Shown piece after piece: positions 20,552-32,000 of a stretch of DNA of 32,000 nucleotides. The position numbers and the translations under genes are program-made. The notes under the pieces are model-generated. The model was not told where the DNA came from. It saw only the letters and a list, made by a program, of their open reading frames with translations, and made no database searches. Where the stretch lies: positions 438,058 through 470,057 of the forward strand of contig JAWAHN010000003.1 of the NCBI GenBank assembly GCA_038889235.1, in the 5' to 3' direction. Each line of letters begins with the position of its first letter. Within the stretch, counting starts at the first letter, position 1. The DNA is from Candidatus Jordarchaeales archaeon. Lineage in GTDB: Archaea > Asgardarchaeota > Jordiarchaeia > Jordiarchaeales > Freyrarchaeaceae.

Positions 20552-21272
20552 CACTCCTCTACGGAATCTCTCCCCTTTTAATTTTTCTCGAAGTGGAGAA
20601 GGCTGCTTCTTCAACGAGCCCCTTCTTTCTCAACGAACACATCTCGGTAGTCGAGTTTCACTTCCAATTTACTAGCATTATTTGTGCTGCTTAGGCTCTT
20701 TTTACCTTTAGCCGCCTTCTTCGGCGCCGTTAGAATCACGATGAACAACATGGCTCCCTCCCTTCAACAATTCCAGCTTCAAAGGGGCCTATCGACTTCC
20801 TCTCTGCTCTCGGCACGCGCCGGCCACCCCTCCAACAATCAAGAGGGTTCTCGTGGAAAAGTCTTATTCCCCGCCTCGTCTAGTCCGAGACCTAGTAAAG
20901 CGTACCGGACTCTCCGTCTCTCCAGCAACTCTAGGAATTCTTCTTTTTCGGTTTCTAACGAGAAGGGTTTAAAAAAGGGCGAAAACCATTGCGCGATTTA
21001 GGCTTCAACGCTTTCAGGTTGAAGTAGAGCGAGGCAGCGCTCTTCATCGTTTTCTCGAGCTTGGGTTGCAAGGAGGTCGAGAAAAAGTCTTAAGGGGCTT
21101 TTTCAGAGCGGATGAAGTTATTTTAACCCTTGCGACGAGTAGTAAAGGTTAGAGTGAAAAGGAGTTCACTTGGAACCTCTCCACAGTGTGATTCATCTGG
21201 GTGGCACTTTAGCCGCGCCGCGTTGAAGCCCGGAAATCGGAGGGCGCACGCCGCCGTGGGGAAGGCGGGGAT

Positions 21273-22088
21273 CTAGGAGTTGGCGCCGCTCTTCTCTTTT
21301 TTCGGAAGCTCAACGTCCACTACTCCCATTCCCCCCGTCCTCTTCACCCCAATGTTCGAGTACGTGGCATACTCTGAGAGCACCGCGACCCATGGAGCGT
21401 ACCCGTCGGTTTTCTTTAGGTAGAAGTCTGCGTGGCCTACGAAGCCGGCCACCCTCCTCTCCTTTCCCATGGAGACGGTCACGGTTCTCAGCGAGTAGTT
21501 GCGCACGTACACGTTGTCTGAAACCCACTTGTAAAGCTCGTCCACGTCGACCTTAACGTAGTCTGGTGCGAAGGCGTTCCACAGCCTCGCAACGCTCGGG
21601 TAAATGTACCTCGGGTCCGGGAAGAGGAAGGGGAACTCGACGCCGTGCACCGAGAGCTGCGTCGGGGTCCTAAAGAACACTCTGAACCTGTCGCTGACCG
21701 ACACCCCCTCGATGAGCTCCTCGTAGCTCTTCCTCTTCACGCCCACCTCGACGAGTGAGAAGTCCACCTCCCCGAGCTTAACCTTGAAGTCGAAGAGGCG
21801 CTCCAGCAGCTTCTCTCCAACCTCGTCGACGAGGAAGCCCAGCCGAAAACGGAACTCGTCCCCAACCCTGACGTGGAAAAGGTCGCCGTGAACCCTCCCC
21901 TTGCCAACCGGGAAGGCCGGGGAGACACTGTAGGGTCTAAGCTGGTTTGGAGCGTGGAGAGCGTTAGCGAGGCCCGGGTCCACTTTGGCGAAGAAGCCCA
22001 GAAGCCCACCCCTAACCAGGTGCCCCGAAAACCGCCTTATGCCGCCCGAGCTAAGGGCTGAGACTTTAACCACAAGTCCCAGGGGCAT
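21273..22088 (-). CDS. cas6: CRISPR pre-crRNA endoribonuclease Cas6
   Basis: Gly-rich C-terminal loop YSNIGVKRTGGMG, RPYSVSP, FRTPT, LFPDP, GFVG motifs; next to a CRISPR array. Confidence 0.92.
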   Translation of the reverse strand: MPLGLVVKVSALSSGGIRRFSGHLVRGGLLGFFAKVDPGLANALHAPNQLRPYSVSPAFPVGKGRVHGDLFHVRVGDEFRFRLGFLVDEVGEKLLERLFDFKVKLGEVDFSLVEVGVKRKSYEELIEGVSVSDRFRVFFRTPTQLSVHGVEFPFLFPDPRYIYPSVARLWNAFAPDYVKVDVDELYKWVSDNVYVRNYSLRTVTVSMGKERRVAGFVGHADFYLKKTDGYAPWVAVLSEYATYSNIGVKRTGGMGVVDVELPKKEKSGANS

Positions 22089-22134
22089 GCACGTCCCTCC
22101 ATTCAGACCGCCGGAGAAACGCCAGCTTCCACAC

Positions 22135-23670
22135 TCATCCAGTTGACGTTAACCCTAGTTTTTCACCTGCAGCTGGCACTCCAATGGATGGGTGAGCATA
22201 GGGGGTTTGCACGTACTTCGTCCTCCTCGGCCTTATGTCGACCAGTATCGGCGTCCTCGTCGCCATACCTGTGACCATTGCGGTCCCGGTTGGCAGCAGG
22301 GGTATCCTTTCGGCTTCGTCGGCGCTCGCGTAGTCAAGGATGGGCTTAAGGTACTCTATGTCGTAGGCCCCCTCTATTCGCAGTATGATCTTCGTGCCGC
22401 ACTGCGTTAAAACATCCTTGTCGAGCCCCGCAACCCTCTGGCTCGTCAGGCACAATGTAACACCAAACTTTCTCCCCTCCCTGGCTATCTTCCTCAGCAC
22501 AGAAGCACAGTAGCTTTTAACCCCCTGCGGCGCGAACCTATGGCTCTCCTCCACCACCACGACCACCGGTGGAATCTCACCCCTCCTCCTCGCATTAAAA
22601 ATTTTCTCTAAAACCACCCCGACCACAGTCCTTCTAATCTCCTCGTCCACCCCTCCGCTCACATCCAGGACCGTGAGGTGGCCCGGCTTGACTAGGTCAC
22701 CGACCTTCACGCTCTCCCCGAAGAAGACGAACTCGTTCAGAGCCTGCAGCTTCCTTAAGATAGCCGCCAGCGTGTTCCTCTGGAAACCCCACTCCCTCGC
22801 AGTAGTCTTTACAGCGGCCAGCAAGTCGTCCAGCCTATACCCCTTGCCCCCTATCTTCCTGAGAGCTAGGTGGAGGAGGTCTGCCTGCGCGTCGCTTAGG
22901 TCGCACACCTCGGCTAGAGCATACGGGTTCAGGTCATCTATGCTTATCGACAGCTTCCTGTCTCCCTCTTCCCCCAGCGAGTAGACAGTTGTCGGGAAGC
23001 CTCTCGGCGCCAGGCCAAGCGCCCTCACCCTTTCAATTTCCTCCGGGTTGTTGTTCGCCTGCGAGAAGAACCTGTACTCTCCGTGTGGGTCGACAGCCAC
23101 CACGGGGAACCCTTTCTCGAGGAGTTCCTCAACGAGCACACCGACCGCGTAAGACTTCCCGCTCCCCGTGGCCCCTAGGACCGCAACGTGGTATGGTAAG
23201 AGGAGCTCCGGGCTCAGCGCGACCCTGACATCGTTATTCCCCCTCATGGTGCCAATGAATAGCCCGTCCGGCCTGAACTTTAGGAAGGCCTCGAGGAGCT
23301 CGGCCTTAGCCCTGTAAACCGTGTCCCCCGGCTCGGGTGGCACCTCAGGAGGCAGCAGCCTGTCCCCCCGCAGGACACCCACAACCCTAACCTTCGCCAC
23401 CCTCCACCTTCCAACTCGCGTTGGGAAGCGCGCCTTAACCGGGATACCTTCCTCCAGGTGGAATTGGAGGAACTCCGGGCTGGAGAAGTACTCGTTGTAC
23501 GTCTGGATCGAGTACACGCGGCCAATCATCACGCTCAGTCCAAGGGGGACCTCGACGTACTCTCCAACCTTCACCTCGACGTCCCCGGCAACCTGAAAGG
23601 AGAAGGCCAAGTGGTTTGGGGTCTGCCCGTCGCATATTATCGTTCCAAGCTCGACCGCACGCTCAGCCAC
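22135..23670 (-). CDS. herA: HerA-like ATPase with N-terminal HAS barrel
   Basis: HVAVLGATGSGKSY (Walker A), DPHGEY, VVEESHRF (Walker B), REGRKFG, SQRV; GTG start at 23670 after GGAGG overlapping the upstream stop. Confidence 0.93.
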   Translation of the reverse strand: MAERAVELGTIICDGQTPNHLAFSFQVAGDVEVKVGEYVEVPLGLSVMIGRVYSIQTYNEYFSSPEFLQFHLEEGIPVKARFPTRVGRWRVAKVRVVGVLRGDRLLPPEVPPEPGDTVYRAKAELLEAFLKFRPDGLFIGTMRGNNDVRVALSPELLLPYHVAVLGATGSGKSYAVGVLVEELLEKGFPVVAVDPHGEYRFFSQANNNPEEIERVRALGLAPRGFPTTVYSLGEEGDRKLSISIDDLNPYALAEVCDLSDAQADLLHLALRKIGGKGYRLDDLLAAVKTTAREWGFQRNTLAAILRKLQALNEFVFFGESVKVGDLVKPGHLTVLDVSGGVDEEIRRTVVGVVLEKIFNARRRGEIPPVVVVVEESHRFAPQGVKSYCASVLRKIAREGRKFGVTLCLTSQRVAGLDKDVLTQCGTKIILRIEGAYDIEYLKPILDYASADEAERIPLLPTGTAMVTGMATRTPILVDIRPRRTKYVQTPYAHPSIGVPAAGEKLGLTSTG

Positions 23671-23674
23671 TCGT

Positions 23675-25114
23675 TCATCCTCCAAACGACTTCTTCGCTC
23701 TCTCAGAGTCTCTAGCCCCCTGAATCTTTTCCAGCATGCCCAGCAAGCCCGCCTTGAGGCCGACCTCAACAGACTTCTCGAGCGACAGCAGGTTGTTCAT
23801 AGCCTCCTGCCTAGCCACGGAAACCACGCTCGGCCCCGCCTCGATTCTCTCCCTCAACGGGGCGGAGGTCAAAGTGTAAGCCAAGTCGGCAACCCTCTTG
23901 TGGTCGCTCAGCGGGTCCCTCGACACAAACTCGTACTTCGTCACTATGCCCCCCCGGGACAGGTAGAACTCGTAGACGTCCTTGACAGGAGGCTTACCCT
24001 TCTCCTCCCCCCTCTCTATCAGACACGTGGAGTCACCGTCCTTCAAGACCAAGGAGAGGAAGGCGAGGTCGTTCGCCTTACCCGGAATCCCACCGAGGAC
24101 CTTGCTGCAAACCCTGAAGAACACGTTGTCAGCCGAAGTCGGGCTAACCCCGACCAGCGTGACCCCCTTCTCGCGCGCCACCCTAACCAGCTCATAGAAC
24201 AACTTGTTGCAAGTATCCCTCAGCCTAGCAAGAGTCTTAGACGCCACAAGGAAGCCGTGGGGGACCAGCGAGCCAAGCCTAAAGTAGACGTCGAATTTGT
24301 CGCCGAGCTCCTCCAACAACTGTATCCCAAGCCTGTAGTGCTGAATCTCCCTCAAATACCTCGCCGCAATACTCCTCCCCGCCTGCAAAAGCTCCGGAAA
24401 GTCCGTGGAGAACTCGAAGAACGGGTCCCCCTCCCCGAAGGGCTCAAAACCCTTAAAAGCGTGCAAGTCGGGAATCCGCCTCCTAACCGACTTATCCGGG
24501 TTAAGAACACCTCGCTCAAAAAAGCCAACAAAACCCCCAACACTCATACAGACAACAGTCAAAACAGTAAAGTCGAACAACGCCAAGTTACGAATACTGT
24601 GAGCCGGAGCCGAGCCGGCAACACATACACCGTCAAGAAAAACCTCCCTCGCAAAACCCGGAAGAACAAGGCGCTCACCAAGAAGCCTAACAGGCAAAAC
24701 ACGCCCCCCAACAGCCACCCCAACCAGCCTCTCCCTAACCTCCTCCCCCGAAACCATCGGAAACTCAAGCTTCTTCAAAACACGCAAAACCTTCCCCGAA
24801 ACAGGCCCACCAACCAAGCCAGCCTGCAACCCCCCAAAATCCTCAACAACAGAAGTATAGGAAGGCTCAAAAAACAAATCCTCCCCCACCCTCCTAGCAA
24901 AATCCTCATTAACAACATACCTCCCAGCACCCCTATAAGACAAAACCCCCAAACTCACAAGGTCATCAAGATAATCCTTCACAGCCCTCTCAGTCAAATC
25001 AACCCTCTCAGCAAGCCTACCAACACGAACCTCACCATCAACAGACTGAAGCTCCAAACAAGCATAAAAAACCACAGCAAGCCTAGCCCTATAAGTCGAC
25101 CCAGTCCGCCCCAA
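23675..25114 (-). CDS. Winged-helix domain fused to NurA-like (RNase H fold) domain with degenerate active site
   Basis: N-term GRLAERVDLTERAVKDYLDDLVSLGVL wHTH; VCVAGS / REIQHY / YFRLGSL / LVGVSPTS resemble NurA motifs with Asp replaced; translationally coupled to herA; TTG start at 25114 after GGTGGTG. Confidence 0.65.
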   Translation of the reverse strand: MGRTGSTYRARLAVVFYACLELQSVDGEVRVGRLAERVDLTERAVKDYLDDLVSLGVLSYRGAGRYVVNEDFARRVGEDLFFEPSYTSVVEDFGGLQAGLVGGPVSGKVLRVLKKLEFPMVSGEEVRERLVGVAVGGRVLPVRLLGERLVLPGFAREVFLDGVCVAGSAPAHSIRNLALFDFTVLTVVCMSVGGFVGFFERGVLNPDKSVRRRIPDLHAFKGFEPFGEGDPFFEFSTDFPELLQAGRSIAARYLREIQHYRLGIQLLEELGDKFDVYFRLGSLVPHGFLVASKTLARLRDTCNKLFYELVRVAREKGVTLVGVSPTSADNVFFRVCSKVLGGIPGKANDLAFLSLVLKDGDSTCLIERGEEKGKPPVKDVYEFYLSRGGIVTKYEFVSRDPLSDHKRVADLAYTLTSAPLRERIEAGPSVVSVARQEAMNNLLSLEKSVEVGLKAGLLGMLEKIQGARDSERAKKSFGG

Positions 25115-25236
25115 AACAACACCACCAGAAATAAACTTCCAAAAAAACAATACAATACAAAAAATAAAAACATAACCCAACACCCAACCCCAACACCAGC
25201 AAACCCACCCCATCCTCCAAACTCAAACATCCTTTT

Positions 25237-25272
25237 CTTTCAATCCCCACTTGTTGGGACTGTTTTTGTTTC
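25237..25272 (-). CRISPR. Degenerate terminal (trailer) CRISPR repeat, isolated from the rest of the array by a 3,025-bp insert
   Basis: ctttcaatccccacttgttgggactgtttttgtttc: 34/36 identical to the array consensus. Confidence 0.93.
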
Positions 25273-26267
25273 GTATAATTCCGCAAGTGTGTGAGGCCTT
25301 CCTCACAGAGAGACAGAAGTATGATGACCAACTTTTAAAACTAGAGGCTGGAACCGAAGAATACGAGAACATCAAGGCGAAGAGAGACGTGATGAAGTTC
25401 CTCACGAACGCCGTCTACGGATACCTGGCGTACCGGGGTAGCAGAATGTTTGACGTTGATGTTGCGTCAACGGTGACAGCTCTGGCTAGAGAGGGAATAA
25501 TGAAGGTGTTAGAATTCTTCGAACAGCTGGGGTATCGCCCGCTATACTGTGACACAGACAGTGTCTTCGTCCAAATGCCGTTTGACAAGGCCACAGCGGT
25601 CGTCTCCCAGGTCAACAAAATGCTGGAGAAATACCTGACAGAGAAGTATGGAATCAAGAAGTGTAACATCAAGTTGAAGTTTGAGAAGTATTCATCCAAA
25701 GTTCTGTTTCTTGGAGTTAAGAAAAGGTATGCCATGAAGGTCGTGTGGGAAGGTTCTGAATGCAACTACGTCAAAGTCGTCGGATTCGAAGCTAAGAGAA
25801 CAGACCAGTCGGAGTTCACGAGGAAGTTGCAGAACGACGTCCTCAACATGTTGCTCAATGGTCAAAGCCTACACGAAATAGTCAGCTACGTCAGGGAGTC
25901 TGTGAAGGGATACAGGGAACGAAGCCTAGATGAAATCTCTATCCCTAAAGGGATCGATAAACCTCTACATGAATACAAGTCGAAGCCACCTCACGTCAAA
26001 GGAGCCCTGCTAGCGAACGCATATCTAGGAGCCAGGTTCGGTGTCGGCAGCAAGGTGAAAATGTTGTACGTCAAGCATGTTCCAGGCTTGCCTAGGACGG
26101 ATGTGATATGTTTTGAAACACCCAAACAGCTGCCCGAAGGCGTGGAGGTGGACTGGGATAGGATGATTGAGGTCTCTGTCAAGCAGAAGTTGGAAGACAT
26201 ACTGGAAGCGGTTGGTATAGGTTGGTCAAACATTCTCGGGTCTGAGAACCTTGACAGGTGGTTGTGA
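25273..26267 (+). pseudogene. polB: 5'-truncated family B DNA polymerase (fingers, part of palm, thumb)
   Basis: Starts at IIP (normally GIIP) at the repeat edge; motif B KFLTNAVYGY, motif C YCDTDSVF, KKRYA, GFEAKRTD; motif A and exonuclease domain missing. Confidence 0.9.
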
Positions 26268-26914
26268 TGTTAGTTGCAGATGCAAACGAACCCGTAGAGA
26301 TAGTTTCTAGGCTCCGGGAACTGGGTTTGGAAGTCGAAGTGAAGCGGTTGGATGTAGGAGACTACCTCGCCACTACGTCTGAATTCACAGTTGCCTTCGA
26401 GAGGAAGACTGCTGAAGACTACATCTCAAGTCTGGAGACTGGAAGACTGAACAACCAGGCCTACCAACTGTCCGTCAACTTCCCCATCTCCTTCCTGTGC
26501 ATCATAGGTTCAGTTTCCTACGCTCTCTCCTTCAGGAAGATCAACAGGAAAGCGTATATCTCCTCGATCTCAAGCATCGCTCTGAAAAGGGCAGGGGACG
26601 GCTGTAGAGGTCAAGTCATCTCACTGCAATTTGAAACAGAATATGACTTCACGCTGTTCGTGAAGTGCGTCCACGACCAGCTGTGCAAAGGGGAGTTTGA
26701 AAGGGTTCCCAGACTGAAGGCCCCAGGTGTGGGTAAGAGTGAAAAATTCATAATGCTGACAGCAATCCCCGGAATCGGTGAGAGGAAGGCGAGGAAGATC
26801 TATGAGCACTTCGGAAGCATAGAAGCCGTGGTTAAAGCCTCCGTCCAGGAGCTGATGGAGGTTGAAGGAATAGGGGTTGAGACAGCGAGGAAGATCTATG
26901 AATTCTTCAGGTAG
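26267..26914 (+). CDS. ERCC4/XPF-family nuclease with C-terminal (HhH)2
   Basis: ADANE, VGDY, AFERKT..DY..S...GRL..Q, LTAIPGIGERKA, VEGIGVETA; ATG overlaps polB stop (TGATG). Confidence 0.9.
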   Translation: MLVADANEPVEIVSRLRELGLEVEVKRLDVGDYLATTSEFTVAFERKTAEDYISSLETGRLNNQAYQLSVNFPISFLCIIGSVSYALSFRKINRKAYISSISSIALKRAGDGCRGQVISLQFETEYDFTLFVKCVHDQLCKGEFERVPRLKAPGVGKSEKFIMLTAIPGIGERKARKIYEHFGSIEAVVKASVQELMEVEGIGVETARKIYEFFR

Positions 26915-26916
26915 GG

Positions 26917-27225
26917 GTGGTCAGGTTGACGGAGGAAATGCTGGTGGAGGCGTGTAAGAGGTTTCCGTACGATGACCACAGGAGGTATCTGTTGTTCCTG
27001 TGTGGTGCGCTGGGAATACAGGAGGATGTGGCACAGATGATCTCGTGGAGGATTTCAAGGGGAGATAAAGGGACTGTGAAGTTCATCGTCAGATTGCTGG
27101 TGCATTCAGGGAATGGTAGGACACTGTCACGATTCCTGCGGATCCTGGAGCCAAACCTAGCTGGGGAGTTTATGACTGAGGAGGTTATCAAGTTAATTAT
27201 AGAAGCGGAGGTGAGTAAAAAGTGA
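26917..27225 (+). CDS. Hypothetical protein (102 aa)
   Basis: Fills the gap between the ERCC4 and AAA genes, with a GTGA overlap to the next gene. Confidence 0.6.
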   Translation: MVRLTEEMLVEACKRFPYDDHRRYLLFLCGALGIQEDVAQMISWRISRGDKGTVKFIVRLLVHSGNGRTLSRFLRILEPNLAGEFMTEEVIKLIIEAEVSKK

Positions 27226-28205
27226 AGAAGGATGTCTTCTTAGACGAAAGGCTCAGGGAGGCGATGAAGAAGATAATAGAGTATGAGGAGAGAGAAGAGG
27301 AGAGAATCGCCAAGGACGAGGTTCTCTCCAAGCTGGGTGTGAAGCCTTACTGGGACTGGCAGGACGTCGGAGTTGACTTCAACGACATAAAGAAGCTGAG
27401 GATTGCAGGGGTCGTGATGGTCATCGGTGGGAGGAGGAAGCGCTACCTACTCGTCAACCGTGAGGAGACGAAGAGGAGAATTGAGGAGATCGAAAGGTTG
27501 GAGCGTGAGGCAATAAACGCTGCAATATCCCAGCCCATCCAGGTGCCGGAAGACATGTTCGACGTGATAATCGGGTATGACGACATGAAGAAGTTCCTGA
27601 AAAAAGTGGTGACCTTAGACGAGCCGTTCCACGTGCTCTTCGTCGGTCCACCAGGCACTGCGAAAACCCTCTTCCTCATGGAGTTCGAAAGAATCCCACG
27701 GTCCAAACTCATAACGGCCGGAACGAGCACCAAGGTCGGGATAAGAGACCTACTGATCGAGGAGAGACCGAGGTTCCTCCTGATAGACGAGTTGGAGAAG
27801 ATAGGGGACCCGAACGACTTGAGCGTTCTACTGACACTGATGGAGTCTCAACGAGTCATCGTAACCAAACACGGAAGCATCACTGAGGAGAGGTTCCCAT
27901 GCTCCGTCATCGCCGCCTGCAACAGCACCAAGAAACTGCCCCAAGAACTGTTGGACAGGTTCCAGGTGTTCCGGCTGAGGAAGTATACGAGAGAAGAATA
28001 CATAGAGATAGTCAAGACCTTCCTCACGAAGAGGAGGGGTGTGAGTGAAGACGTGGCAAAGTACATCGCTGAGAAGGTTTCAGAGTACACGCTGTCCGTC
28101 AGGGAAGCTGTGAGAGTGTCAAAGGTTGCGAAAACCATTGAAGAGGTAGATAAGGTAATAAAGCTGTTTAGAACGTATTCAAACACACAGGAGGTGAGTG
28201 AATGA
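27222..28205 (+). CDS. AAA+ ATPase (RuvB-like core) with N-terminal extension
   Basis: Walker A GPPGTAKT, Walker B FLLIDELEK, sensor AACN, Arg finger LLDRF. Confidence 0.9.
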   Translation: MKKDVFLDERLREAMKKIIEYEEREEERIAKDEVLSKLGVKPYWDWQDVGVDFNDIKKLRIAGVVMVIGGRRKRYLLVNREETKRRIEEIERLEREAINAAISQPIQVPEDMFDVIIGYDDMKKFLKKVVTLDEPFHVLFVGPPGTAKTLFLMEFERIPRSKLITAGTSTKVGIRDLLIEERPRFLLIDELEKIGDPNDLSVLLTLMESQRVIVTKHGSITEERFPCSVIAACNSTKKLPQELLDRFQVFRLRKYTREEYIEIVKTFLTKRRGVSEDVAKYIAEKVSEYTLSVREAVRVSKVAKTIEEVDKVIKLFRTYSNTQEVSE

Positions 28206-28297
28206 AAGGAGAGGTCTGCGAGTAATGCATAACGATATTCTGCATCGGCGTCGTGGCCTACGCTCTGTCAACGAGCATCGAAAGCGCCTTCTACATA
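28202..28297 (+). pseudogene. Probable broken N-terminus of the next foreign gene (membrane-like), cut by the repeat
   Basis: ATG overlaps the AAA stop (ATGA) after GAGGTGA; reads MKGEVCE*CITIFCIGVVAYALSTSIESAFYI up to the repeat. Confidence 0.35.
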
Positions 28298-31200
28298 CTT
28301 TCAATCCCCATTTGTGGGGACTGTTTTTGTTTCTTTTGGGGTCCCGGCTGAGGACCCCTCGGAGGAAGACTTCTTTCAATCCCCATTTGTGGGGACTGTT
28401 TTTGTTTCTTGGACGAGTTGACAAACGTCCAGAGGGAGGACGTCTTATCTTTCAATCCCCATTTGTGGGGACTGTTTTTGTTTCATAATATACATCACGA
28501 CGGCACGGGAACCAAAGGTTTCCGCTTTCAATCCCCATTTGTGGGGACTGTTTTTGTTTCTTTTGAACCCGTCCCTCGCGAACACCCATCGGAAGACCTG
28601 ACCTTTCAATCCCCATTTGTGGGGACTGTTTTTGTTTCGAGAAGGTGGTGCTGTTACCACCTGAAAATCGAACCGCTAAACTTTCAATCCCCATTTGTGG
28701 GGACTGTTTTTGTTTCTGGGAGGCGGCCAAGGCCATAGCCGAAATGGTGGAAAACTTTCAATCCCCATTTGTGGGGACTGTTTTTGTTTCCCGTTGCCAT
28801 GGTGTTTCCTCGTGGACTAGTGAAGTGTACTTTCAATCCCCATTTGTGGGGACTGTTTTTGTTTCTCGAAATGTTGGTTCCGGAGTCAGCTTCAATCTTC
28901 ACTCTTTCAATCCCCATTTGTGGGGACTGTTTTTGTTTCACGCGGTATTTCTGAGGCAAAGCGGCAGGTGGTACATTTTCTTTCAATCCCCATTTGTGGG
29001 GACTGTTTTTGTTTCTCCACGTGTTCGGGGTTGGAAGCACGATTACAATGCACCCTTTCAATCCCCATTTGTGGGGACTGTTTTTGTTTCCCAACATCTC
29101 AAATGTGCTCGAAGACGCCGCCAAGAACCACCTTTCAATCCCCATTTGTGGGGACTGTTTTTGTTTCCCCCTAACTCCCCCATTTTATTACTTGTTTCAA
29201 GAAGCCGCTTTCAATCCCCATTTGTGGGGACTGTTTTTGTTTCGCGGAGGCAAAGCCTCGCGAAGGCGGCGAACTTCCTCTGCTTCACTTTCAATCCCCA
29301 TTTGTGGGGACTGTTTTTGTTTCTAGTCGACGAACTCGCGGAAGACGCCGCGCCTTAAGAGGTCTTTCAATCCCCATTTGTGGGGACTGTTTTTGTTTCT
29401 AAACGCAAAAGCTTCATCCACACCTCTATGCTCTCCTTTCAATCCCCATTTGTGGGGACTGTTTTTGTTTCACAAGATAGTAGTCGAGCGACCCAGCGGG
29501 ATCAAATTTACCTTTCAATCCCCATTTGTGGGGACTGTTTTTGTTTCGATTGAAAGTTCTCATCCCGCGGGGCTCTGATCCCCAGCCATGAAACTTTCAA
29601 TCCCCATTTGTGGGGACTGTTTTTGTTTCAGCAGATAAAAGAGCTTGAGAAGGCCATCAGGCAGAACTTTCAATCCCCATTTGTGGGGACTGTTTTTGTT
29701 TCCAGAGAAAGCACCGCGCTCTCCGGCCTCTTCTTCAACCCTTTCAATCCCCATTTGTGGGGACTGTTTTTGTTTCTGCAAAGTCCTCTGGCACGTCTGA
29801 AGAGATGACCTTGTTCCACTTTCAATCCCCATTTGTGGGGACTGTTTTTGTTTCGGGAGGCTGTTGAGAAGTTGAAGAAAACCATTGAAAGTGTCTTTCA
29901 ATCCCCATTTGTGGGGACTGTTTTTGTTTCTGAACGAAAAAGACTGGGCACCTATCATAATGTATCACTTAGCTTTCAATCCCCATTTGTGGGGACTGTT
30001 TTTGTTTCCTAGGACACGCTAACCCAAAACCCGAAAGCCGCCTCTGAGCTTTCAATCCCCATTTGTGGGGACTGTTTTTGTTTCAAGAGATACCGGTGTA
30101 TCCTCCGGGTATAGGCGGAATATGCTTTCAATCCCCATTTGTGGGGACTGTTTTTGTTTCCCCGGACCCGGTCACTTGCAGGACCCTGAAGCATATCTCT
30201 TTCAATCCCCATTTGTGGGGACTGTTTTTGTTTCTAGTAACTTGAACGCCGACATGGTTGACGGAAAACACTCACACTTTCAATCCCCATTTGTGGGGAC
30301 TGTTTTTGTTTCTTGCGTGTTCGAGTTCAAAACAACGCGGAAGTTCACGCTTTCAATCCCCATTTGTGGGGACTGTTTTTGTTTCAACATCGTCCGCGAG
30401 ATAATTGAAATTATTAAAGAAATCTTTCAATCCCCATTTGTGGGGACTGTTTTTGTTTCCCATCCACCTCCAGCGATAACAGTGAAAACCCTAATAACTT
30501 TCAATCCCCATTTGTGGGGACTGTTTTTGTTTCGCGCGTTCCTACACGGCTACCCGACGAGCAGGGACTTCACCTTTCAATCCCCATTTGTGGGGACTGT
30601 TTTTGTTTCCGAAATCCTCTTCCGCGGGATCTCTGCTATATTTTCCAACTTTCAATCCCCATTTGTGGGGGACTGTTTTTGTTTCATGTAAAAGTGCGGC
30701 AGATTACCGGTCCGGGGGAAAACTTTCAATCCCCATTTGTGGGGGACTGTTTTTGTTTCTTTCGGGTCCGTGATCAGAACCGAGAGGAGCGGTGTCTCTT
30801 TCAATCCCCATTTGTGGGGGACTGTTTTTGTTTCTGCTAGCAACCATTTCAAATCTAAAAGGGCTACCAACTGACTTTCAATCCCCATTTGTGGGGGACT
30901 GTTTTTGTTTCTTTAACAAACGATCTCGTGTGGGGAAGCATTCCCCACTGGGTCTTTCAATCCCCATTTGTGGGGGACTGTTTTTGTTTCAGGCTCCGAT
31001 GTCGCCGAGTATCCCGGAATAGGCGGTGGCTTTCAATCCCCATTTGTGGGGGACTGTTTTTGTTTCGAGCAAGACGTAAAAAAACAAAGGGAAGCTGATC
31101 AAGAAGCCTTTCAATCCCCATTTGTGGGGGACTGTTTTTGTTTCGATTCTCGTCTCGGCGCTGAACAAGCAGAGGGAGAAGTACACTTTCAATCCCCATT

Positions 31201-31988
31201 TGTGGGGGACTGTTTTTGTTTCCTGGAAGCTTACGAATGGAAACACAAATTCAATCCATTCACTTTCAATCCCCATTTGTGGGGGACTGTTTTTGTTTCT
31301 AAGATTTGTAGTTTTGGGAGTACGGCATATCCACCGTACCTTTCAATCCCCATTTGTGGGGGACTGTTTTTGTTTCATACTGAGGAGGATGCTTGAAAAG
31401 AGCCACGTTCCAAAGACTTTCAATCCCCATTTGTGGGGGACTGTTTTTGTTTCGTCTTGGGCTTAAACTTCTTCAGCTTTTGAATTCGCCTAACTTTCAA
31501 TCCCCATTTGTGGGGGACTGTTTTTGTTTCCGCTACTAGGTCACCGTGGCGCTCCGCGACCTCAATCCACTCTTTCAATCCCCATTTGTGGGGGACTGTT
31601 TTTGTTTCGAAAGACGCCTTTAGATGGTGGAGAAAAGGCATAATCAACTTTCAATCCCCATTTGTGGGGGACTGTTTTTGTTTCGCCCCGCAACGCCCTC
31701 TTGATTTTCTCCTTCAACTCACTGTCTTTCAATCCCCATTTGTGGGGGACTGTTTTTGTTTCTTCTAGCGTTAATCTGTGTAGCTGGCTTGGTGTCACCT
31801 TTCAATCCCCATTTGTGGGGGACTGTTTTTGTTTCATTATAGTTTGGATGTATGAAGCTGTTGCACAACAGCTTTCAATCCCCATTTGTGGGGGACTGTT
31901 TTTGTTTCCTAACGCCGGCTTCAAGCTTATCACCTGCGCTTGAACTTTTTACTTTCAATCCCCATTTGTGGGGGACTGTTTTTGTTTC
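28298..31988 (-). CRISPR. CRISPR array: 49 repeats here (31 x 36 nt, then 18 x 37 nt), spacers 36-46 nt; continues to or past the right edge
   Basis: Repeat on minus strand GAAACAAAAACAGTCCCC(C)ACAAATGGGGATTGAAAG; CCCCA-CAAA-TGGGG stem ends at the canonical 8-nt ATTGAAAG handle; degenerate repeat at left end implies the leader lies to the right. Confidence 0.99.
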
Positions 31989-32000
31989 CTAACGCCGGCT

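Follow-up and report, generated by a model that had tools for sequence, protein, structure and literature searches.

In a Candidatus Jordarchaeales hot-spring Asgard archaeon, a 3,025-bp stretch of DNA fills a single spacer slot of a CRISPR array, at its old end. The window, which is the whole stretch of 32,000 nucleotides that was analysed, contains 49 repeats of this array, and the array runs off the end of the contig. The insert occurs once in the genome and is about 75 times as long as the ordinary spacers, which measure 36–46 nt. It is flanked by direct copies of the repeat of this array, a degenerate terminal repeat (25237–25272) on one side and the first consensus repeat (from 28298) on the other, after which ordinary repeat-spacer units follow. 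Genes in the insert were called from open reading frames, Pfam, motif checks and PDB matches. The features of the locus are:

21273..25213, minus strand: Cas6, HerA and NurA-like genes, on the trailer side of the array
25237..25272, minus strand: terminal (trailer-most) degenerate repeat, two mismatches to the consensus at positions 14 and 19 of the plus-strand reading
25273..28297, no strand: pseudo-spacer in a single spacer slot, predicted fragment of an L039-type mobile element
25275..26267, plus strand: family B DNA polymerase (polB) remnant, C-terminal 330 residues (Pfam, motifs)
26267..26914, plus strand: short XPF-type ERCC4 nuclease with (HhH)2, 215 aa, intact (Pfam, motif, PDB)
26322..26358, no strand: protospacer, 34/37 to the second-newest spacer of a sister species, 100% in L039, 5' flank TCT
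26938..27225, plus strand: orf95, intact, 95 aa from TTG 26938 (102 aa from GTG 26917)
27222..28205, plus strand: AAA+ ATPase with an MCM/clamp-loader-like P-loop core, 327 aa, intact (Pfam, motifs, PDB)
27599..27637, no strand: protospacer, 36/39 to a sister-species spacer, 95% in L039, 5' flank CCT
28206..28297, no strand: tail of the fragment, 92 nt, no recognisable gene
28298..32000, minus strand: CRISPR array, 36-nt repeat, with a 37-nt variant from 30649

Genes of the insert and array context

All genes of the insert lie on the plus strand, with the polB stop and XPF start overlapping in TGATG and the orf95 stop and ATPase start in GTGA. Motifs B (KFLTNAVYG) and C (YCDTDS) are retained in the polymerase remnant, which aligns to residues ~415–748 of homologues of 731–750 aa, the first ~415 residues being absent; its amino acid identity to the 743-aa polB of the free element L039 is 91.5%. 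A functional family B polymerase, defined by an exonuclease domain together with motifs A, B and C, was considered and rejected: the remnant lacks the N-terminal/exonuclease part and has no DxxSLYP-type motif A. The nuclease carries a GDx(n)ERKx3D motif at residue 33 followed by a C-terminal (HhH)2, matches PF02732 and HhH families in Pfam, aligns end to end with the solved 214–219-aa XPF chains 2bhn/2bgw (E 7e-17), and shares 93% amino acid identity with its L039 counterpart. These features identify it, at the level of sequence, as a short archaeal form of the XPF/Mus81/Hef ERCC4 nucleases.

No family could be assigned to orf95 (no Pfam, PHROG or Atlas lead at or above 0.9), and a 95-aa homologue of 74% identity occupies the same place in L039/L040, with an omega of 0.22. 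The ATPase has Walker A (GPPGTAKT) and Walker B (LLIDE) motifs; PF00493 matches residues 124–237 only, and an MCM structure in the PDB matches over 133–314 (E 1e-5). An MCM replicative helicase was rejected, since MCM proteins join an N-terminal OB/zinc region to the AAA+ domain in ~600–700 aa, whereas this protein has only 327 aa and matches in its P-loop core alone. It is accordingly classed, by its predicted product, as an AAA+ ATPase of the MCM neighbourhood and not as MCM.

An earlier note on this DNA had described the nuclease, the small ORF and the ATPase as full length. This holds, with the nuclease and ATPase motifs present and XPF and orf95 of the same lengths (215 and 95 aa) as in L039. 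Its account of two broken terminal genes was borne out on one side only: polB is truncated, but the supposed broken gene on the right (28206–28297) has no homologue and is just an unassigned tail. In-frame TTG codons, which it had placed inside the repeat ahead of the polB remnant, are indeed found there, at 25251, 25254 and 25266.

Four lines of evidence indicate that the array is transcribed in the minus-strand sense: the ATTGAAAG handle, with the repeat reading ...GGGGATTGAAAG on that strand; degenerate repeats, which in three of the four arrays mark the low-coordinate end; the leader with cas1-cas2-cas4 at the high-coordinate side, continuing on contig C4; and a T5 run on the plus strand of every repeat, against only two such runs in 3.7 kb of array in the minus sense. 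The plus-strand genes of the insert are antisense to such a pre-crRNA, as had been pointed out before, and the handle repeat on the 5' side is intact. The insert unit is the last in the array, at least 3.7 kb from the leader, and the degenerate terminal repeat still folds, at -10.1 kcal/mol compared with -14.1 for the consensus. All four arrays of the genome have identical repeats, and one spacer is common to two of them. A check for self-targeting found that none of the 134 assembled spacers of the genome matches the insert or L039.

Beside the leader, contig C4 has NCBIfam matches to Cas3' and Cas3'' (as separate genes), Cas5a, CsaX (scoring below the curated cut-off) and Cas1-Cas2-Cas4. These genes and the Cas6 in the window assign the predicted array-owning system to type I-A. 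Cmr2 is present alongside the type I-A adaptation and effector genes at the leader, and both type I-A and type III-B effectors are predicted to serve the array.

Donor element and natural alleles

The free element L039/L040 shares 86.6% nucleotide identity with the insert and is collinear with it from the first base after the repeat (25273); the L039/L040 sequences end inside the ATPase gene, and the border comparison is one of the left junction. There the fragment lies flush with the repeat, collinear with the free element and with polB cut mid-gene. Its first 22 nt differ from L039 at 5 positions, which is not clearly more than the 13% overall, and L039 has no repeat-like sequence or attachment site at the equivalent point. 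The sequence comparison identifies the source as an L039-type mobile element, in whose free form polB is complete. The element type encodes polB, a primase, clamp-loader-like ATPases and 7-deazaguanine genes. It probably infects this genus of Jordarchaeales, and four leader-side spacers of a sister species match L039 at 95–100%, with YCT flanks. No capsid gene was found in ~30 kb of a more distant relative (L014/L038), and the element may be either a virus or a plasmid. Searches for the insert elsewhere gave nothing useful in PLSDB plasmids and INPHARED phages (blastn/tblastn) and found none in IMG/VR; a JGI metagenome scan with the insert ATPase as query likewise found none.

A single Logan contig from the probable source run spans 25207–28325, with a depth 0.85 times that of the chromosome. 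A second, independent metagenome study again shows both junctions, on contigs differing from the window at 25 sites, and this second metagenome also contains an allele with an ordinary 37-nt spacer instead of the insert. The insert is polymorphic in nature, not fixed. The alternative spacer had no match in an exact search and none to the insert or to any fetched element. The insert shows 25 differences in 2.9 kb, and the flank 2 in 4.1 kb. This excess was considered as a sign that infecting elements cause gene conversion, but it was discarded as evidence, because Logan contigs follow the majority path and do not show the flank of the strain in which the insert occurs, a minority.

Open frames in the insert are intact in both insert-bearing alleles. 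The dN/dS comparison that the earlier note had proposed reveals strong purifying selection in the element lineage (omega 0.06–0.22). The two array-borne alleles, in contrast, differ by 11 synonymous and 12 non-synonymous changes, against a simulated neutral mean of 7.6 synonymous (P = 0.09), a test on 23 sites with little power. The changes after capture cannot be told apart from neutral evolution.

A relic of this ATPase family is also present in the sister species, in the equivalent position on the trailer side of an array. This relic belongs to the same clade as the insert ATPase (dN 0.29, dS saturated), is frameshifted at its N-terminus and has no flanks in common with the insert, and the sister species lacks the polB, XPF and orf95 of the insert. 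In the ATPase tree, the window copy, the sister copy and a free-context copy (L035) form a polytomy, and independent captures appear as likely as descent. That array end of the sister species also contains a second repeat-flanked insert, of 1.4 kb.

Origin and possible use of the insert

The pseudo-spacer is probably an arbitrary cut from the replication operon of an L039-type element, its intact genes being passengers of a recent capture. Cas1-Cas2-Cas4 may have pasted an unmeasured fragment into the array, perhaps ectopically, or the element may have recombined with the array; in either case a repeat-repeat rearrangement would have followed entry. Plain Cas1-Cas2 insertion duplicates the repeat and adds one unit. 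Here the left repeat is degenerate, the right one matches the consensus, and the other allele's ordinary spacer is not there, so at least one further event is needed. Three genes would be whole because they lie inside the cut of a gene-dense operon and the capture was recent, and their antisense orientation would be one of two equally likely outcomes. The sister-species relic at the same place counts against the capture explanation, since pure accident does not predict it.

Leader transcription and a Cas6 cut in the repeat at 28298–28333 would give an RNA starting with AUUGAAAG and continuing as the reverse complement from 28297 down, so that in any crRNA made from this unit the tail (28206–28297) would supply the 5' part of the guide, next to the handle. 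Type I-A and III-B crRNAs undergo 3' trimming down to ordinary length, and known maturation of this kind would reduce the transcript to an ordinary crRNA against the part of the element that lies downstream of its ATPase gene; persistence as a stable 3-kb antisense RNA is less likely.

For the origin alone, homologous recombination in place of an integrase is unlikely but deserves some weight. It could have taken the form of a double crossover between the element and matching spacers, or of the arrival of a repeat-flanked unit from another array, for which the four identical-repeat arrays and their common spacer offer an opening. The insert replaces a spacer and was not added beside one, as recombination would have it, and the same scenario is listed for the published SiL-E1 case (PMC3718332). 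Against this, the other allele's spacer matches neither the insert nor any fetched element, the first 22 nt carry no clear excess of divergence, and 36–40 nt of homology is short.

It is doubtful that the adaptation machinery stores gene-sized DNA and that the stored piece is used, whether as antisense or guide RNA or as an expressed XPF/ATPase reservoir against the element. If this were true, the sister-species relic and the 1.4-kb insert would reflect a regular process and not accidents.

The RNA form of such use is improbable. In it, read-through of the array would yield a long antisense RNA, as suggested in the earlier note; this RNA would pair with the mRNA of the element's replication operon, or serve as a very long guide, and so block the invader. 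Orientation and handle are right for it, folding of the terminal repeat is retained, the host has an RNA-sensing Cmr2/Cas10 effector, and the element still threatens the genus. The orientation is nevertheless a one-in-two event, the unit stands at the very end of the array, the minus sense of the insert contains three oligo-T tracts (26742, 27217 and 27600), established 3' trimming would shorten the product, and in another natural allele an ordinary spacer takes the place of the insert. In the source study, two metatranscriptome runs, ~3% of each of which was read, gave zero reads across 7.5 kb, host genes included, and so do not bear on the question.

Equally improbable is expression of XPF, orf95 and the ATPase from the plus strand and their co-option, for example as a decoy or poison subunit against the element's replisome or as helpers of the neighbouring HerA/NurA-like module. 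A strong Shine-Dalgarno sequence precedes each start, the plus strand of the insert has no T5 run, frames survive in two alleles despite 25 differing sites, and the sister species has a same-clade ATPase in the same place. The insert has no promoter of its own, however, as the promoter-bearing upstream part of the operon was not captured; the neutral-like changes after capture, the frameshift and unshared flanks of the sister copy, the polytomy with L035 and the allele lacking the insert also argue against co-option.

Finally, the insert is almost certainly no assembly chimera in which the repeat linked element reads to the array, a possibility the earlier note had named: the array does end the contig and repeats do break the assembly in four places, but the left repeat is a unique variant, no contig continues from the insert ends into element DNA, and both junctions are crossed by one contig and recur in the independent metagenome.

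Comparison with known systems

The kilobase pseudo-spacer in this array is real and rare, with one published precedent. Our search of the literature found a single kilobase case in print, SiL-E1 of Sulfolobus islandicus LAL14/1, in which a ~2-kb piece of a mobile element with five ORFs lies between two array repeats (PMC3718332, Open Biol 2013). SiL-E1 is collinear with a free element, with similarity up to the repeats, and is followed by further units; related strains lack it, its host has type I-A and III-B systems, and the same two origin scenarios were proposed (PMC3718332). It is the closest precedent, sharing with our insert a kilobase element piece between repeats, collinearity with a free element, further units, lack of fixation and a I-A/III-B host. 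The present insert differs in its 3-kb size, its position in the very last slot beside a degenerate repeat, the cut inside a polymerase gene and its Asgard host, and also in having two natural insert alleles and one ordinary-spacer allele, with a sister species that holds fresh donor-targeting spacers.

Canonical Cas1-Cas2(-Cas4) acquisition, for which ectopic (non-leader) insertion has been reported in Sulfolobus type I-A, resembles the present case in that foreign DNA joins the repeat exactly (here seen at the left border), the donor is targeted by arrays of this kind and adaptation genes sit at the leader; it differs in the length of the DNA, the flanking repeats, which here are not a duplicated pair, and the trailer position. 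Virus-borne mini-CRISPR arrays that recombine with host arrays through their repeats would also put element DNA beside repeats, but L039 lacks repeat-like sequence at the left-junction point, where a repeat would disrupt its polB. Casposons, whose Cas1-family integrase inserts kilobase DNA with target duplication, commonly carry a family B polymerase and are similar in both DNA length and cargo. A casposon was rejected: the insert has no Cas1 (casposase) and no terminal inverted repeats, its polB is truncated, and its ends are direct-orientation CRISPR repeats.

Spacer slots filled by kilobase DNA are relevant to the question of how strictly substrate length is measured by Cas1-Cas2, and to the relation of the CRISPR integrase to casposases, which move kilobase DNA. 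Relative to the Sulfolobus precedent, what is new here is a defined donor, natural alleles that either carry or lack the insert, a host that is not a member of the Sulfolobales and a sister species that targets the donor, together with a new replisome-carrying, 7-deazaguanine-encoding element family linked to Jordarchaeales hosts.

Array orientation, features and genes of the insert

Contig C3 of the 2.14-Mb genome (8 contigs) ends with the window, and the insert lies there within the following features:

25237-25272: extra copy of the array repeat, with 2 mismatches
25273-28297, genes on the plus strand: the insert (pseudo-spacer), 3,025 bp
First ORF, plus strand: polB part (family B polymerase, C-terminal 330 residues), supported by Pfam, motif and PDB checks
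Second ORF, plus strand: short XPF nuclease, 215 aa, with GDx(n)ERKx3D and (HhH)2
Third ORF, plus strand: orf95, 95 aa
Last ORF, plus strand: AAA+ ATPase, 327 aa, Walker motifs intact
28298 to contig end: CRISPR array, 49 repeats

Of the 134 spacer slots in this genome's four assembled arrays, only the 3,025-bp unit between the 25237-25272 repeat and the array is over-long, and the insert is present in a single copy. Ordinary spacers measure 36-46 nt. The repeat changes leaderward from 36 nt (GGGGAC, 28298-30640) to a 37-nt variant (GGGGGAC, 30649-32000), indicating that the variant is the repeat being copied in the array's newer half.

Four independent lines place the pre-crRNA on the minus strand, in agreement with the earlier note. 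The repeat, read on the minus strand, ends in ATTGAAAG; degenerate repeats lie at the low-coordinate array ends on contigs C2, C3 and C5; contig C4 opens with the terminal 17 nt of the repeat, followed by a leader of ~480 nt, a DUF2797-like gene, cas1, cas2 and cas4 (with csaX, cas3'', cas3', cas5a and a Cmr2/Cas10 gene downstream), and the sister species, a related member of the Jordarchaeales, has the same leader/cas order within one contig; and a T5 run on the plus strand is found in each repeat, against two such runs in 3.7 kb in the minus sense. It follows that the cargo genes run antisense to the pre-crRNA and that the insert occupies the slot farthest toward the trailer.

Several further features of the arrays were observed. 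The C2 and C3 arrays have one spacer in common (39/41 nt identical), and the C1 array contains two pairs of neighbouring spacers that are identical within each pair. Long low-complexity tracts flank the arrays (window 25100-25236; C4:18-500; trailer flanks on C1, C2 and C5), A/C-rich on the trailer side and, on the same strand, G/T-rich over ~480 nt on the leader side. Within the leader, a conserved CGGAAC...TTTATA...GTTCCG element is shared with the sister species.

Reading-frame, Pfam, motif and PDB checks consistently bore out the intact XPF/ERCC4 nuclease, small ORF and AAA+ ATPase described earlier; their stop and start codons overlap (TGATG, GTGA), and a strong Shine-Dalgarno sequence precedes each insert gene start. 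Over its full length, the 215-aa nuclease matches a solved XPF chain (2bhn/2bgw). The polB part, whose alignment starts with the codon immediately following the repeat, corresponds to residues ~415-748 in homologues of 731-750 aa; motifs B and C are retained, and ~415 N-terminal residues, the exonuclease domain among them, are missing. Both terminal genes had been described as broken; this is shown for polB only, since the final 92 nt of the insert contain no recognisable gene.

Reality of the insert and its natural alleles

Logan contigs from two runs, belonging to different studies, were mapped on window 21200-28700. In the probable source run, a single 3,119-bp contig covers 25207-28325 at a depth of 102, against 121 in the flank. 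In the independent run, X2, the left junction lies on a contig covering 25225-26041 and the right junction on one covering 26210-28325 (L015), with 25 sites differing from the window. Neither run yielded contigs leading out of the insert ends into other DNA across 21200-28700. An assembly chimera, the possibility raised against the insert in the earlier note, is excluded for practical purposes, as one contig spans both junctions and both recur in the independent run. The observation is confirmed: the insert is a real object.

The pseudo-spacer unit is polymorphic in nature, because the independent run also contains a 113-bp contig on which the terminal repeat leads into a normal-length spacer (37 nt) and then a repeat. 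This contig parts from the insert-bearing contig directly after 25254, so that the first difference is repeat position 19, one of two degenerate positions; such a branch would fit a chimeric terminal repeat arising from repeat-repeat recombination. A minority path seen in the probable source run departs from the chromosome exactly at 25236/25237, where the terminal repeat has its outer border, into TATAGAGGCCTC..., which has no match among the sequences retrieved in this analysis; this path is a third allele at the array end. The 42-nt spacer at 28639-28680 occurs with non-array flanks in both runs, on contigs of 1,190 bp (independent run) and 226 bp (source run), indicating that its target element is present in both hot-spring samples.

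Donor element, relatives and selection

An orf95 homologue search of Logan contigs retrieved L039 (SRR21619492) and L040 (SRR21619491), from a free mobile element related to the insert donor. Their module order is queuosine/7-deazaguanine genes, TGT, a full 743-aa polB, XPF (215 aa), orf95 and ATPase, and the 7-deazaguanine set of this family is full (QueC/D/E, FolE, TGT). Over 2.4 kb the insert shares 86.6% nucleotide identity with these contigs and aligns collinearly from its first base onward, with protein identities of 91.5% (polB part), 93% (XPF), 73% (orf95) and 86% (N-terminal half of the ATPase); no repeat-like sequence occurs at the L039 point corresponding to the junction. A more distant 38-kb relative (L014/L037/L038) also encodes a primase-like protein, two RFC-like ATPases, a PD-(D/E)XK nuclease, ParA, ParB and MoxR, and no capsid gene was found in ~30 kb of it. 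Four leader-near spacers of the sister-species array match L039 at 100, 97, 95 and 95%, and two of them also match the window insert at 92%, where the two protospacers are preceded 5' by CCT and TCT. These matches indicate that CRISPR systems of this type currently target the donor within the genus. This host-element link of the L039/L040 family was not found in two published Asgard virome papers.

The dN/dS comparison with free-element homologues proposed in the earlier note gave a low omega (0.06-0.22), which reflects selection during life in the element; there was no significant sign of post-capture constraint. Between the two array-borne alleles, ERCC4-orf95-AAA carries 11 synonymous and 12 non-synonymous changes, a weak test, against 7.6 +/- 2.2 synonymous changes expected in simulation with the observed mutation spectrum (P=0.09), and the same simulation put the probability that no stop codon would arise at 69%. 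A gene-dense operon, cut recently, explains why the genes are intact. Between the window and X2 alleles, 18 of 23 transitions are A/G on the coding strand and K/R swaps are many, which may be only purine-rich codon usage.

In the sister species (three MAGs; host genes 79-88% identical), 5.6 kb separates the NurA-like gene from the array. This stretch carries an ATPase of the same clade as that of the insert (63% identity, N-terminus frameshifted), and in the three MAGs it is without polB, XPF and orf95 and has no flanks in common with the insert. Between the two ATPases dS is saturated and dN is 0.29, and dN/dS alone does not tell descent from separate captures; in the ATPase tree, the window copy, the sister copy and the L035 copy (non-array context) form a polytomy. 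The same 5.6-kb stretch also holds a second array, with a repeat unlike that of the main one:

L016:11463-13354 (also L017, L018): second array, 30-nt repeat GTTTCAAGCCCTTATAGGTATTCTTGCAAC, 8 copies, adjoining the trailer of the main array

A lone identical copy of this repeat lies 1,371 bp upstream. The intervening stretch, with two minus-strand ORFs of 130 aa and 242 aa (the latter with a Bles03/PF08939 match), makes up another kilobase insert flanked by repeats; the window's genome lacks this repeat type. In G006, a complete genome belonging to a different family within the order, the NurA-like/HerA pair lies directly beside a 79-repeat array (L030, G006:C1:72000-91000) of opposite orientation, leader side toward the pair, and without insert; genome G004 has the pair without a nearby array.

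Origin, predicted RNA and precedent

The left flanking repeat is degenerate, the right one is consensus and the ordinary spacer is missing, flanks that plain integration does not yield. Either integration followed by a repeat-repeat event or a unit brought in by recombination could have produced them.

In type I-A and III-B systems, Cas6 cleavage is followed by trimming of the crRNA 3' end to ordinary length. By analogy, Cas6 would cut upstream of the insert unit, and the predicted RNA would be trimmed at its 3' end to an ordinary crRNA, complementary to element plus-strand transcripts just downstream of the ATPase gene. The odds of the full 3-kb antisense RNA suggested previously are lowered further by the insert's far-end array position and by three oligo-T tracts in its minus sense. 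Among the ~3% of reads sampled from each of the source study's two metatranscriptomes, none mapped to window 21200-28700, the host genes there included.

To our knowledge, this is the first pseudo-spacer in an Asgard archaeon. Its anatomy is that of SiL-E1 in Sulfolobus islandicus LAL14/1, the one published case found, for which the authors propose either an error in prespacer processing or recombination with spacers already present (PMC3718332). The pseudo-spacer is a second, better-documented case of this rare known kind.
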